In this document: piece after piece, positions 35,201-41,200 of the stretch | Position numbering within the stretch: the first letter of the stretch is position 1 | How the letters are laid out: every line of letters begins with the position of its first letter | From: a plasmid | Reading direction: 5' to 3' (one strand) | NCBI RefSeq assembly: GCF_054482595.1 | Contig: NZ_JBTHVH010000004.1 | Length of the DNA stretch: 64,000 nucleotides | Position numbers: made by a program

Positions 35201-38200
35201 TCAGGTGATCAAGGATCTGCTTGATCACTATAGGGTCTTCAATGCAGGCGATGACTTTCATGGCGCCGCCGCAGCCGCTGCAGGTCTCGATGTCGATATT
35301 GAAAACACGCTTGAGCCGTTGCGCCCATGTCATCGACGCTCGCCGTTGTGCTGGTGTTGCCGGTTCATCAGCCACCCTGACCTTGTTGCCCCTGCCCCGT
35401 TTTGCCGGCGTGACCAACGCCCGGTGCCGACTGTTGGGTGCGAACACCCCGTGGAAGCGGGTTAGGTTGACTCTGGGCTTCGGTACCAGGGCGGCCAGCC
35501 TTGCAATGAAATCCAATGGTTCGAAAATGACGTGCGTGGTGCCGTCCCGGTACGGCGTCTTGAGCTGGTAGCGCACGTTGCCGCCTCGTGTTAACGACAG
35601 CCGCTTCTCGGATACCGCCGGGCGGCTGATGTACCGGCACAGCCGTTCGAGCTTCTTGCGTTCATCGGCCCTGGCCGCCACGCCGGCGTGCAGGCTGGAC
35701 CCGGCTACCTTGCCAATCCCGTCACCGAACGGATCACCACTGGTCGGCAGAGTTTGCAAAGTGAACACCTTTCGCCCCGCCTGTGAACCGACAGCGATAC
35801 GGTAAGTGATCGAGTGCCCCAGCAGGGGTGTCATCGGGTCGTCATCCACCGCATCCGAGGCCAGATAGCTGTTTTCGACATCCCGTTCCAGCAGGCCTTG
35901 CCGTTCCAGATAGCGACCCACCCGGTGGGCGATGGTGTGCGTCAGCGGCACTGTTGCAAATAACCACGAATGGTAAGCTGAAGACTGTTTTAGCTAAAGG
36001 TGCAGCATATGAATCCTTTCCATGGTCGGCATTTTCAGGGCGAAATCATTCTTTGGGCTGTGCGCTGGTATTGTAAATATGGCATTAGCTATCGTGAACT
36101 GCAGGAAATGCTGGCCGAACGGGGTGTGAATGTTGATCACACGACTATTTACCGTTGGGTTCAACGTTATGCTCCTGAAATAGAAAAACGTTTACGCTGG
36201 TATTGGCGTAATCCTACAGATCTGAGCTCGTGGCATATTGATGAAACCTATGTAAAAGTGAATGGACGATGGTCTTATCTGTATCGTGCAGTCGATCAAC
36301 GTGGCGATACCATTGATTTTTATCTTTCTTCTAGACGTAATACCAAATCAGCATATTGTTTTCTTGGAAAAATTTTAAATAATGTGAAGAAGTGGCAAAT
36401 TCCACAAGTGATCAACACGGATAAAGCACCCACATATGGACGTGCTTTATCACGGTTAAAACGGGAAGGTAAATGTCCACCAGACCTTGAGCACAGGCAG
36501 ATTAAGTATAAAAATAACGTGATTGAATGTGATCATGGCAAGCTAAAGCGGATCATCAGGGCCACATTAGGATTCAAATCTATGAAGACGGCTTATGCCA
36601 CAATTAAAGGTATTGAAGTCATGCGTGCACTACGTAAAGGACAAGCATCGTCATTTTATTATGGTCAGCCTCAGGGTGAAGTGTGTCTAATCAACAGGGT
36701 TTTCGGTCTCTAAGTACTTTTTAAAGGGAACATCATCGACTCAAATCTCTATTTGCAACAGTGCCAAAAAAACCAACTTCAAGTTGGTTTTTCTTTTTTA
36801 ATCATCAGTGGCGACCTTAACACCATATCCAATTAAACCTGCAAGGCTAGCATAGGCTATTTTGGCATAAATCGAACCCCACCAGACCGTAATTTTACTG
36901 GCACCAAATTCCCGAACCGTTTGCCCCATAAAATTAGTGGTTTCATAGAAATTTTTAGCAGAATAACCTAACGCAATATGATCAAGGACAGGGAATAAAC
37001 TAAAAGCTAAACCTACTGCTGCTGCGGGGAAAGTAAACTCTCTTGATAGACCGAATTTTCCAGTAATAAATACAAGCGATACCACGATAATTAATCTAAT
37101 GATAGTCCATAGCATCACTGTGAAAGGCAAGTTAAAGATGCCTGCTCCCTGCCACGCAAGACCGCAAACAACTAGGGGTCGTCTCAGAAAACGGAATCTA
37201 TGGTCACTCCCGTTTTTGCAACACCGATTTTGACGACAAGTTGGCTTGCTTGAATCTATCCGGCGTCTGAATGGGATTTTATTCCCGCGCCTCGATGAGT
37301 TCCGCGCCTGATGAACCTCCAGAAAATATACGGCTTCAATGAGCCTTTCCGTTTTACAGGTTCCTCAACAGGCCGGTGGGCCGTTAGTATCATCAATATC
37401 AGTATTCGCAAAACCAGATGAATGATTGTTTAAACTGGTGTATTTCTGCCTTTATGCTTCGTAAGTTTGCTGTCGCGCCGTCAGTGCCCAGGCTATTCTG
37501 GCCAGCTTGTTTGCCAGAGCACAGGTGACGACAAAGTTGCTTTTCCGACACAACAACTCCCTGACCCAGTCGGCCAACTTGCCAGACTGGTGTTCCAGTT
37601 TTTGTATGAATACCCTGGCACACTGAACCAACAAAGTTCGGATCTTTTTGTTGCCCCGCTTGCTAATCCCTAACAATGTCGTCCGACCTCCCGTGCTGTA
37701 CTGTCGGGGTACCAGCCCTGTTGCCGCCGCAAAGTCACGGCTGCTGGCGTACTGCTTCCCGTCGCCAATCTCAGTTGAAATAGTACTGGCAGTCAGCGTT
37801 CCAACGCAGGGAATACTCAGCAAGCGCTGTCCAACCTCATCTTCGTCCAACTTTCGTTTCAACTGAGATTCCAGATCTTTAATCTGCTCAACAAGATAGT
37901 GATAATGCTGTTGTAATTTCAGCAGTAACTGGCTGAGATAAAGAGGCAAACTACTGTCCTCAAGAAGGGTACTCAGTCGACTAATAACGGCAGCACCTCG
38001 CGGAACGCTGATACCAAATTCCAGCAGAAAAGCATGCATCTGATTAGTTGTTTTCACCTTATCCTGAACCAGGGATTCACGGACACGATGCAGAGCTCGC
38101 ATTGCCTGCTGAGATTCGGTTCTGGGCTGCACGAAACGCATAGATGGACGTGATGCTGCTTCACAGATAGCTTCAGCATCAACGAAGTCATTTTTGTTGC

Positions 38201-41200
38201 TTTTAACGAATGGGCGGACAAATTGCGGTGATATCAGCTTTGGAAAATGCCCTAACTCTTCCAGCTTGCGTGCCATAAAGTGAGAACCGCCACAGGCTTC
38301 CATCGCGATGGTTGTTGCCGGGCATGTCGCCAGAAATTCGATTAGCTTTGGTCGGGTGAATTTTTTACGGTAAACGGCCTTCCCACGATGATCCTGACAA
38401 TGAATATGGAAAGAGTTCTTACCCAGATCGATACCAATAAGCGCAATGTTTTCCATGATGGTTCTCCGAATGAAAGCCTGTCCTCAGCATAGTACTGGGA
38501 AGGAGGGAGTGACCATCTCATTAAATAAAGCACGCTAAGCCGGTTGCAGAGGCCGTAGCGGCCTGAACTTCCCCGCGCCGATCTTGGCGCTGCTGCGCCA
38601 TAGGTAATCACCGGTCAGGTTGATGTGCTCCCAGCCGAGTGGCGACAGGTACTGCAATAGCGAGTCATCGACGGCATGACCATTGCCGCGCAACGCATGC
38701 GCCGCACGCTCCAGGTAGACCGTGTTCCACAGCACGATGGCCGCCGTCACCAGGTTGAGGCCGCTGGCCCGGTAGCGCTGCTGCTCGAAACTGCGGTCAC
38801 GGATTTCACCAAGGCGGTTGAAGAACACGGCACGGGCCAGCGCATTGCGCGCCTCGCCCTTGTTCAGCCCGGCATGCACGCGGCGGCGTAGCTCGACGCT
38901 TTGCAGCCAGTCGAGGATGAACAGCGTGCGCTCGATGCGGCCCAACTCGCGCAGCGCGACGGCCAAGCCGTTCTGGCGCGGGTAGCTGCCGAGTTTCCTG
39001 AGCATCAGCGAGGCCGTCACCGTGCCCTGCTTGATCGAGGTGGCCAGCCGCAGGATTTCGTCCCAATGGGCGCGGACGTGCTTGATGTTGAGCGTGCCGC
39101 CGATCATCGGCTTGAGCGCGTCATAGGCGGCATCGCCCTTCGGGATGTAGAGCTTGGTGTCGCCCAGGTCGCGGATGCGCGGCGCGAAGCGGAAGCCCAA
39201 GAGGTGCATCAGGGCGAAGACGTGATCGGTGAAGCCCGCCGTGTCGGTGTAGTGCTCCTCGATCCGCAGGTCGGATTCGTGGTACAGCAGGCCGTCGAGC
39301 ACGTAGGTTGAGTCGCGCAGGCCGACATTGACCACCTTGGTGTGGAATGGCGCGTATTGGTCGGAGATGTGGGTGTAGAAAGTCCGTCCTGGGCTGCTGC
39401 CATATTTTGGGTTGATGTGCCCCGTGCTCTTTGCCTTGCTAGCGGTTCGGAAATTCTGTCCGTCCGATGATGATGTGGTGCCATCGCCCCAGTGCCCGGC
39501 AAAGGGATGCCGAAACTGAGCGTTGACCAGTTCAGCCAACGCTGTCGAGTACGTTTCGTCGCGGGTATGCCAGGCTTGCAGCCAAGCGAGCTTCGCGTAG
39601 GTCGTGCCGGGGCAGGACTCGGCCATCTTGGTCAGGCCCAGGTTGATCGCGTCGGCCAGGATCGTGGTCAACAACAGGTTCTTGTCCTTGGCCAGATCGC
39701 CCGATTTCAAGTGCGTGAAGTGCCGGGTGAAGCCCGTCCACTCATCGACTTCGAGCAGCAGTTCGGTGATCTTGACGTGCGGCAGGACCATGGCTGTCTG
39801 GTCTATCAGCGCCTGCGCGGTGTCGGGCACCGCCGCATCCAGCGGCGTGATCTTCAAGCCCGACTCGGTGATGATGGCATCCGGCAGGTCGTTGGCTGCC
39901 GCCATGCGGTTGACGGTGGCAAGTTGTGCTTCCAGCAGCGTCAGCCGCTCATGCAGATATTGTTCGCAGTCGGTGGCCACGGCCAGCGGCAATTCGCTGG
40001 ACTGCTTGAGGCTGGTGAACTTCTCGGGCGGTACCAGGTAGTCCTCGAAGTCCTTGAACTGGCGTGAACCCTGCACCCAGATGTCGCCCGAGCGCAGGGA
40101 GTTCTTCAACTCGGACAGCGCGCACAGTTCGTAGTAGCGCCGGTCGATGCCGGCGTCGGTCATCACCAGTTTCTGCCAGCGCGGCTTGATGAAGCCGGTC
40201 GGTGCATCGGCTGGCAGCTTGCGGGCGTTGTCGGTGTTCATGCCGCGCAGCACCTCAATGGCATCAAGCACGTTTTTGGCGGCGGGCGCGGCCCGCAGCT
40301 TGAGCACGGCAAGGAATTCCGGTGCATAGCGGCGCAGGGTGGCGTAGCTCTCGCCGATGCGATGCAGGAAATCGAAGTCATCGGGTTGCGCGAGCTTCTG
40401 CGCCTCGGTGACGCTCTCGGCAAAGGAATCCCAGGACATGACGGCCTCGATGGCGGCAAACGCATCGCGGCCTGATTGCTTGGCGTCGATCAGCGCCTGA
40501 CCGATGCGCCCGTACAGACGTACCTTGGCGTTGATGGCCTTGCCTGACGCCTGGAACTGCTGCTGATGCTTATTCTTGGCAGCGTTAAACAGCTTACCCA
40601 GGATGCGGTCGTGCAGGTCGATGATTTCGTCGGTGACGGTGGCCAGCGCCACGAGAGTGGCGTAGCGCCGTTGCGGCTCGAATTTGGCCAGGTCGGCGGG
40701 TGTCATCTGGCCGCCCTCGCGGGCAATCTTGAGCAGGCGGTTCTGGTGAACCAGCCGCTCGATGCCGGTAGGCAGATCGAGTGCCTGCCATGCCTTGAGG
40801 CGTTCGATGTGTTCCAGCATATGCCGCGAATTTGGCTTGGCCGGAGACTGGCGCAACCAAGCCAACCAGGTCGTCTTGCCGTTGTCCCGGCGCTTGAGCA
40901 GATCGTCGAGGCGGCGGCGATGCGCGTCCGCCAGTGGTTCGGCCAAGGCGTCGTAGATGCGCCGGTTAGCACGGGTGATCGCCTCGGCACTCGCCCGCTC
41001 GACGGCGTTGAGGGCGGGCAGAATGACCGACTGCCGCCGCAGGTGCCCGATCAAGGCGCTGGCCAGCACGATGCCTTTGTCGGTTTGCATCGCCAGCTCG
41101 GTCAGCATCTGGACGGCCTGCCGGTAATGGCTCATGGTGAAGGGCCGGAAACCGAACACGGTTTGCAGCTCGCTCAGGTGCTCGCGCCGGGTCTGCTCCC

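Follow-up and report, generated by a model that had tools for sequence, protein, structure and literature searches.

The stretch of plasmid DNA analyzed here (64,000 nucleotides of contig NZ_JBTHVH010000004.1, RefSeq assembly GCF_054482595.1; hereafter the window) contains a Tn21-family terminal inverted repeat (IR) that is split by an insertion sequence (IS). The locus raises the questions of what this element is, how it finds such a precise target, and whether the transposon end that it occupies still works. A preliminary description had read it as an IS4321/IS5075-type element lying in the 38-bp IR, which our analysis refines: the insert is almost certainly a complete copy of IS5075 that followed its usual site- and orientation-specific mode of insertion and lies between positions 22 and 23 of a Tn21-type IRtnp, the IR at the transposase (tnpA) end of Tn21, on an IncHI2 multiresistance plasmid. 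The arrangement of IS5075 in a Tn21 end is real but ordinary, being already known and present in many sequenced plasmids. It consists of the following parts.

37175–37196, plus strand: outer 22 bp of the Tn21 IRtnp (GGGGTCGTCTCAGAAAACGGAA), read directly and equal to positions 1–22 of the intact IRtnp in R100 and in the E. coli plasmid pHS13-1-IncHI2 (L046)
37197–38523, minus strand: IS5075, 1327 bp, complete, with its left (transposase-proximal) end at 38523 and its right end at 37197; 100% identical to copies in the plasmid database PLSDB
38524–38539, plus strand: inner 16 bp of the Tn21 IRtnp (AATAAAGCACGCTAAG), holding the tnpA stop codon (38535–38537)

When GGGGTCGTCTCAGAAAACGGAA and AATAAAGCACGCTAAG are joined they give, with no base gained or lost, the uninterrupted 38-mer GGGGTCGTCTCAGAAAACGGAAAATAAAGCACGCTAAG found at the Tn21 tnpA end of R100, and the split of one IR into 22 + 16 bp that had been described is therefore correct. 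The two half-repeats occur once each in the window, where 0.00 and 0.03 occurrences would be expected by chance, and are spaced by exactly 1327 bp. Because the mer end of Tn21 in R100 (IRmer) begins GGGGGCACCTCAG and differs from the repeat in the window, the latter is specifically of the IRtnp type. The boundary of the element can be moved by one base, as the last base of the left flank is also the last base of the element (a shared A/T). A single-base ambiguity at the circle junctions of IS4321 and IS5075 has likewise been discussed (PMC5001619).

The state of the site before the insertion can be seen in related plasmids. We reconstructed a pre-insertion probe by joining the left flank (331 bp, outer IR half included) to the inner IR half with 321 bp of tnpA behind it, and compared this probe with PLSDB. 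Many plasmids match it at 100% identity over 668 contiguous bp, and at least about 401 plasmid records carry the empty site in the same flanking context (at least 80% of the probe in one place). Occupied sites fall outside this count, as pieces of a match were joined only if they lay no more than 834 bp apart; a probe for the occupied left junction identifies at least 84 records with the same flank. In L046 the region upstream of the IR is arranged as in the window (floR, a DUF3363 gene, an IS1006-like element and a hypothetical open reading frame, ORF), and is followed by an intact IR at 9310–9347, the same 983-amino acid (aa) tnpA, an intact 186-aa tnpR and a class 1 integron. Window positions 32163–37196 align with L046 4298–9331, and positions 38523–41901 with L046 9331–12709. 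The flanks that are 1327 bp apart in the window meet at a single base in L046, which shows a clean insertion without target duplication.

Junctions of this kind might also be produced by homologous recombination between IS5075 copies in different Tn21-family IRs, which would join an unrelated outer half to the tnpA end. Hybrid sites with left and right flanks of different origin do exist (L010 and L025 in the genome survey described below), and the outer 22 bp are found also at a lone IR in R751. However, many related plasmids carry the two flanks as one uninterrupted stretch, at 100% identity and with the IR intact. The flanks abut at one base in L046, and simple insertion into that allele accounts for the structure without any further event. 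Since clean insertion into an existing empty-site allele accounts for the junctions, a recombinational origin is unnecessary and we consider it hardly credible for this locus.

The insert is complete and belongs to the IS1111 group within the IS110 family, all structural hallmarks of the group being present. These hallmarks are a transposase of 330–350 aa with a PF02371 domain that contains the motif GL-P----S(t)G, subterminal repeats of 11–13 bp flanked by terminal extensions of 7 bp (left) and 3 bp (right), and a long non-coding region downstream of the transposase gene (Siddiquee et al., PMC11187229). The corresponding features in the window are given here.

37452–38456, minus strand: transposase ORF, 334 aa, the sole long ORF of the insert, identified by ORF search and translation
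38505–38516: left subterminal inverted repeat (GGGAGTGACCAT on the plus strand), followed by a 7-bp extension at 38517–38523 that reads TAATGAG in IS orientation
37200–37211: right subterminal inverted repeat (ATGGTCACTCCC on the plus strand), preceded by a 3-bp extension at 37197–37199 that reads AGA in IS orientation
37197–37451, minus strand: non-coding region of 255 bp downstream of the transposase gene, the predicted source of a seekRNA or bridge RNA, with length and position that fit the IS1111 rule

The transposase matches PF01548 (DEDD_Tnp_IS110, RuvC-like) over residues 7–146 (E = 1.4e-20) and PF02371 (Transposase_20) over residues 210–286, and its C-terminal motif GLVPRQYSTGG at residue 247 fits the group consensus. 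It also matches the NCBIfam model NF033542 ('IS110 family RNA-guided transposase') with 341.9 bits at a cut-off of 140. The intervening DNA had been described as exactly 1327 bp encoding an IS110-family transposase, and this holds in length and in content. The 12-bp subterminal repeats are perfect, 37200–37211 being the complement of 38505–38516, so that the ends in IS orientation read TAATGAG-ATGGTCACTCCC ... GGGAGTGACCAT-AGA. Non-coding DNA amounts to 67 bp upstream of the transposase gene in addition to the 255 bp downstream. From its sequence, the copy looks fully intact.

IS4321 and IS5075 are closely related, and the choice between the two names was made by comparison with database copies. 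The window element, present in one copy, matches thousands of PLSDB copies from end to end at 100% identity; RefSeq labels these 'IS110-like element IS5075 family transposase', and the transposase of these identical copies is WP_000427619.1, for which the RefSeq name is IS5075. By megablast against PLSDB the copies fall into two discrete populations, with identities of 99% or more in at least 3702 records and of 90–95% in at least 1252 records. Alignment with the two R751 copies of IS4321, a check proposed in the preliminary description, gave equal lengths and termini and nucleotide identities of 93.14% (IS4321L) and 93.22% (IS4321R). Because it is 100% identical to the RefSeq IS5075 copies and only 93% identical to those of R751, the element is assigned to IS5075 and not to IS4321. 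The transposase differs from those of the two R751 copies at only 4 and 7 of 334 residues, so the divergence between IS5075 and IS4321 is mostly synonymous.

Were the element instead IS4321 or an isoform of it, one would expect the equal length of 1327 bp and the equal termini, target and orientation that are seen, as well as the amino acid identity of 98.5–98.8% to the IS4321 proteins of R751 and ISfinder. By the ISfinder convention isoforms share about 95% nucleotide identity, and we rejected an IS4321 identity at 93.14–93.22% to the R751 copies, both of which carry the RefSeq name IS4321. The occurrence of database copies in two separate bands, with the window copy 100% identical to those named IS5075, also contradicts this reading, which we regard as extremely improbable. 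A point to be set against our assignment is that the name IS5075 depends on the RefSeq labels of identical copies together with the clear gap to IS4321. The founding paper on IS5075 is reportedly that of Partridge and Hall (2003, J Bacteriol 185:6371).

With the RefSeq-named copies as the comparison, no difference between IS5075 and the window element is detectable. The two share the length of 1327 bp, the 334-aa DEDD transposase, the 12-bp subterminal repeats with their 7-bp and 3-bp extensions, and insertion in one orientation between positions 22 and 23 of the Tn21-family 38-bp IR. IS4321L and IS4321R of R751 have the same length, termini, insertion point, orientation and non-coding core, including both of the predicted guides discussed below, but differ from the window element by nucleotide divergence of 6.8–6.9%, most of it synonymous.

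Both IS4321 copies in R751 lie at the same point of the 38-bp IR, with the right end of the IS facing the outer half. To place this in a wider sample, 100,044 species-representative genomes were scanned for the 23-nucleotide (nt) right end of the IS, and 41 loci were obtained, mostly in Enterobacterales. The right flanks of most of them begin with TTCCGTTT (outer IR half) or with a 1-nt variant of it. Published examples include Tn21-family IRs split by IS5075 into 16 + 22 bp (PMC5725488), and the known targets of IS5075 are IRs of Tn21-like transposons as well as look-alike sites, among them the 3' end of Klebsiella ureC (PMC8269217). Taken with the R751 copies and the related loci, these reports agree with the earlier statement that IS4321 and IS5075 target this IR position; the insertion point and orientation in the window are those of IS4321L in R751 and of the related loci in other genomes, as had been anticipated for an orientation-specific insertion.

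Modules closely similar to that of the window have been reported. An IS5075-interrupted IRtnp lies inside a multiresistance segment with floR, tet(A) and ISCR2 (PMC6052338). As in the window, the modules of PMC6052338 and PMC5725488 have a Tn21-family tnpA end with IS5075 in IRtnp, the former in a segment with floR and tet(A) and the latter with its IR split 16 + 22 bp. They differ in that the module of PMC6052338 is named after TnAO22 (Tn5051-like), whereas that of the window is Tn21 of R100 save for a 15-bp deletion in tnpA, and in that the host backbone of the window is IncHI2. All features match published IS5075 and IS5075-interrupted Tn21-family ends, and none is new biology.

Four of the 41 loci (L007, L008, L014 and L034) consist of only the last 25–150 nt of the IS right end, with a normal-looking right flank and unrelated DNA upstream. 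These may be truncated remnants or rearrangement scars.

The specificity of the insertion leads to the question of how the target is recognized. Other members of the IS1111 group produce a 70–100-nt seekRNA from the downstream region that co-purifies with the transposase and is essential, and in this RNA a segment complementary to the top strand of the target is followed on the 3' side by a segment complementary to the bottom strand (PMC11187229). For the cluster containing IS4321 and IS5075, a supplement to Durrant et al. lists a right-end bridge RNA as predicted (PMC11208160), so that the existence of such an RNA in this cluster has already been put forward in print. We identified the following candidate features in the non-coding region of the window element.

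37302–37376, minus strand: predicted target-binding stem-loop, from a single-sequence fold and an RNAalifold consensus of 16 distinct relatives
37347–37355, minus strand: predicted guide 1, RNA AAAACGGAA, complementary to TTCCGTTTT, the top strand of the target directly right of the insertion point
37322–37328, minus strand: predicted guide 2, RNA UAUUUUC, equal to the top strand TATT/TTC across the insertion point (marked here and below by a slash), which would pair with the bottom strand

The predicted stem-loop consists of an outer stem, an inner stem (GAACCU/AGGUUC, the slash here separating the two strands), an internal loop with both guides, and a closing hairpin (GGCU...AGCC). Guide 1 and guide 2 lie on opposite sides of the one internal loop in both the single-sequence and the consensus fold, which in these models is the layout of a target-binding loop. 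The 255-bp non-coding region as a whole folds with z = -2.85, and IS5075 and IS4321 share an identical core of this region despite an overall identity of 93%. The match of guide 1 extends to a 10-nt exact complement, AAAACGGAAA (element positions 1169–1178, window positions 37346–37355), of the top-strand sequence TTTCCGTTTT spanning the crossover, and guide 2 is placed 18 nt beyond the guide-1 segment. Among 5000 dinucleotide-preserving shuffles, the 10-nt match is found in 83 (p about 0.017), and both matches together in 20 (p about 0.004). At the loci where the insertion is not in an IR (L005, L015, L027, L033, L039 and L043), similarity to the IR ends after TTCCGTTT(T), the footprint of guide 1, and conservation in these targets is limited to the approximately 8–9 nt under that guide.

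The relatives of the element provide a comparison between guides and targets. The guide RNA region is retained in 28 of the 41 loci, and the 9 nt at the position of guide 1 divide these 28 into three classes. The class of the window element, AAAACGGAA, comprises 22 loci with the right flank TTCCGTTTT, exact in 12 and mostly with single-base variants in the rest. In the five loci of class B (ATATCGGAA) the right flank is TTCGATAT or TTCGATAA, and the change from AAAA to AUAU in the guide is mirrored by a change from TTTT to ATAT in the flank. The third class, GGTTAGGAA, comes from Morganella morganii H1r (L040, a 962-bp contig), where the right flank TTCCTAACC is a perfect 9/9 complement. Mean edit distances between guide and flank are 0.59, 1.2 and 0 for the cognate combinations and 2.45–4.82 for the non-cognate ones, and every guide class fits its own flanks better than those of the other classes. 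The guide-2 region of class B is also changed (UAUAAUUUUUC), along with the only available left flank, AATAAT/TTC (L012). The left-flank analysis comprises few cases, left ends having been located in 12 of the 41 loci, many of which are contig ends or only the last 25–150 nt.

Based on these observations, it is likely that the target choice of IS5075 is guided by RNA. The transposase protein might instead read the IR sequence directly, with the complementary non-coding segments being coincidental. Several points favor this alternative and weigh against RNA guidance: the 7-nt match of guide 2 taken alone is no better than chance, the target has a low-complexity, A/T-rich sequence, and there is no Rfam match in positions 36900–38800 at E ≤ 1. 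In addition, class-B relatives show an unexplained 1-nt offset between guide 1 and the flank, expression of an RNA from the non-coding region is presumed, and covariation in the stems is weak (a single compensatory pair, covariation term about 0 in RNAalifold), as the relatives are too similar and the stems nearly invariant. However, the 10-nt match is rare in shuffled sequences, guide 1 and the right flank have changed in concert in two independent relatives (one of them L040, with its 9/9 complement), the transposases differ little while the targets differ, and experiments on other IS1111 members have demonstrated that these require such an RNA and follow it. We therefore give direct reading by the protein only a small chance.

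A guide carried by the element would resemble those of characterized systems. The seekRNA elements ISEc11, ISKpn4, ISPst6 and ISPa11 (PMC11187229) likewise have a downstream non-coding region with two segments, for the top and then the bottom strand, that overlap at the insertion point, no target duplication, and a circular intermediate with a junction promoter. In these elements the seekRNAs have been shown experimentally and the targets are a linear site, attC or REP, whereas for IS5075 the RNA is predicted and the target is a transposon IR; the transposase of the window element is only about 30% identical to those of ISKpn4 and ISPst6. IS621 (PMC11208160) similarly combines a DEDD recombinase with a structured RNA in which the halves of an internal loop pair with the two target strands. 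However, the IS621 RNA is located in the left end and its donor-binding loop is plainly distinct, while the RNA of IS5075 would lie in the right end, with a donor loop only tentatively visible. A candidate for such a donor loop (CUCAUU/CUCAU corresponding to the left end and AUAGAU to the circle junction) was dropped, as the 6-nt matches are at chance level and RNAalifold pairs CUCAU and AUAGAU with each other.

The class-B loci (L012, L021, L028, L029 and L044) come from Serratia marcescens, Huaxiibacter chinensis, Citrobacter sp. and Klebsiella spallanzanii. The L012 element is 1321 bp long and approximately 82% identical to IS5075. The class-B right flank, TTCGATATCCAAACTG(A/C)CCCC, resembles the outer half of a different Tn3-family 38-bp IR, and class B is apparently a retargeted sister element of IS5075. 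The guide-2 region of L040 is altered as well (CUCAAGUUUAUAAG). It is possible, though on balance doubtful, that natural relatives in this clade have rewritten guide 1 for the equivalent position of other Tn3-family end repeats (ATATCGGAA, GGTTAGGAA) in a mapping that may be unpublished. If true, the IS5075/IS4321 clade would represent a natural series of bridge or seek RNAs that co-evolve with transposon ends. The copy of IS5075 in the window adds nothing new to this retargeting reading.

The ends of the element also suggest a route for insertion, and the promoter element that this route would use is in the right end.

37216–37221, minus strand: TTGCAA, a -35 box in the IS right end that is 17 nt upstream of GATAAT after circularization

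When the ends are abutted, ...TTGCAAAAACGGGAGTGACCATAGA/TAATGAG..., the derived sequence reads TTGCAA, 17 nt, GATAAT across AGA/TAATGAG. Circles of IS4321 and IS5075 with the junction AGATAATGAG and putative -35 and -10 boxes have been described, with about 5,250 circle-junction reads for IS4321, about 400 for IS5075, and no deletion junctions (PMC5001619). In the route that we propose, the IS would leave its donor as a circle with the abutted ends AGA/TAATGAG, and the TTGCAA-N17-GATAAT junction promoter would drive the transposase gene and the downstream non-coding region. The seekRNA or bridge RNA from the latter would bind the DEDD transposase; AAAACGGAA would pair with the top strand immediately to the right of the crossover, and UAUUUUC with the bottom strand across it. 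Recombination would be placed in this way at ...TTTATT/TTCCGTTTT..., without target duplication. The copy in the window may still be active. Read-through transcription between its transposase gene and tnpA is conceivable, as in the integrated state the two genes point in the same direction.

The remaining question is whether the interrupted transposon end is still functional. The neighboring features that bear on it are as follows.

38535–41486, minus strand: Tn21 tnpA, 983 aa, frame intact, with a 15-bp in-frame deletion relative to R100; matches PF01526, PF13700 and NF033527
41489–41901, minus strand: truncated tnpR, residues 51–186 only (136 of 186), identical to residues 51–186 of R100 TnpR
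41902–42721, plus strand: IS26, 820 bp, which cuts tnpR; 14-bp terminal repeats GGCACTGTTGCAAA and TTTGCAACAGTGCC, and an IS6-family transposase

Positions 38524–41901 match Tn21 of R100 with 0 mismatches and one 15-bp gap, and all 983 TnpA residues are identical to those of R100. The deletion (at about 40622–40636) lies between two GGCCACCG direct repeats and removes five codons from codon 284, shortening the protein from 988 to 983 aa. It predates the IS5075 insertion, because the same 983-aa protein (WP_015344976.1) is found in empty-site plasmids. The tnpA stop codon inside the inner IR half is untouched. At the other side, IS26 abuts at 41902, where homology to L046 stops exactly at 41901, and the truncation of tnpR by IS26 had been recognized correctly. 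The first 50 tnpR codons and everything beyond them, which in Tn21 includes res, the integron and the other end, have been removed. The match to the resolvase profile does not begin before position 60, and the catalytic N-terminus of TnpR is therefore gone. No second Tn21-type 38-bp IR is present in the 64-kb window, and no mer genes are found in the annotation of the co-linear plasmid pKC25-20925_262kb.

Transposases of the Tn3 family need contiguous 38-bp IRs at both ends. With its IR in pieces of 22 and 16 bp that are 1.3 kb apart, the Tn21 end should no longer work, and since IS26 has also taken the 5' part of tnpR and the DNA beyond it, the Tn21 remnant would be a passenger and not an autonomous transposon. 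It is reasonable to regard the module as immobilized as a Tn21 unit, given this general knowledge of contiguous IRs and the missing parts. On the other side of the balance, we found no open-access experiment on the loss of function of an IS5075-split Tn21 end. The end might escape immobilization if precise excision of the IS restored the IR, or if TnpA were able to use the interrupted end. Excision can be catalyzed by IS110-family recombinases (PMC11208160), tnpA remains an open frame of 983 aa, and empty and occupied forms coexist among close relatives. However, in one deep-sequencing study thousands of circle junctions and zero deletion junctions were seen for IS4321 and IS5075, so that restoration of the donor site was undetected (PMC5001619). 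The loss of the tnpR 5' part and of all Tn21 DNA beyond it applies in either case, and the sole other 38-bp IR in the window is of a different type, Tn1721, and 25 kb away. Escape from immobilization is therefore unlikely.

Passive transfer of the remnant is still possible, as there are IS26 copies around it and near-identical records of its plasmid are typed as conjugative. The resistance genes of the island are unlikely to move by Tn21 transposition and would more likely move by IS26 and the plasmid itself. We suggest that the locus be annotated as IRtnp(Tn21)::IS5075 - tnpA(delta 15 bp) - delta-tnpR - IS26, a fossil Tn21 end in an IncHI2 resistance island. IS5075 could seed insertions into other Tn21-family ends or into look-alikes such as Klebsiella ureC (PMC8269217). 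Because empty and occupied alleles both occur among related plasmids, the insertion is also a convenient lineage marker.

A 9.7-kb block (window positions 33000–42721) that contains the locus occurs unchanged (100% identity) in IncHI2 plasmids of Salmonella and E. coli. Positions 8001–33000 match the K. pneumoniae plasmid pKC25-20925_262kb at 100% identity in one piece, and the gene coordinates of that plasmid coincide with those of the window as far as the IS26 at 41965–42669.

The statement that the window holds no other Tn21-subfamily IR was rejected, as an intact IR lies at some distance from the locus.

12488–12525, plus strand: 38-bp Tn1721-type IR (GGGGAGCCCGCAGAATTCGGAAAAAATCGTACGCTAAG), intact and not occupied by IS5075

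At the site equivalent to the insertion point this IR reads TTCCGAATT, with 2 mismatches to the guide-1 complement TTCCGTTTT; these may explain why it is free of IS5075. It adjoins an ORF at 12521–14341 (minus strand, 606 aa) that looks like a truncated Tn3-family tnpA.

Beyond the IS26 next to tnpR, positions 42722–64000 of the window are IncHI2 backbone (repHI2 and proteins with Ig-like domains) that shares 99.9% identity with IncHI2 plasmids of E. coli. At this point the otherwise co-linear pKC25-20925_262kb carries IS903B and blaCTX-M-65 instead, an IS26-associated difference within a pair of close relatives. Three identical copies of IS26 are present in the window, at 17190–18009 (minus strand), 23825–24644 (minus strand) and 41902–42721 (plus strand). 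The intI1 ORF at 22819–23931 encodes 370 aa compared with the usual 337, and as it runs into IS26 at 23825, its 3' end has apparently been replaced by IS26 sequence.

On the other side of the Tn21 IR, an IS6-family element at 35946–36764 has IS26-like terminal repeats (GGCACTGTTGCAAA) and is too diverged for an IS26 blastn match; its transposase is named 'IS1006 family' in RefSeq. The 410-bp stretch between this element and the IR contains an ORF at 36798–37130 (minus strand), encoding a hypothetical protein of 110 aa with no match in Pfam or NCBIfam. In the empty-site plasmid the counterpart of this ORF is longer (477 bp) and crosses the IR into the tnpA end, and the annotation is therefore probably a junction artefact and not a gene. 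In a Citrobacter freundii plasmid (H53, NZ_PP626394.1), the empty-site probe matches in two pieces spanning 1453 bp (132536–133988), and approximately 785 bp other than IS5075 are found at or near the same IR.

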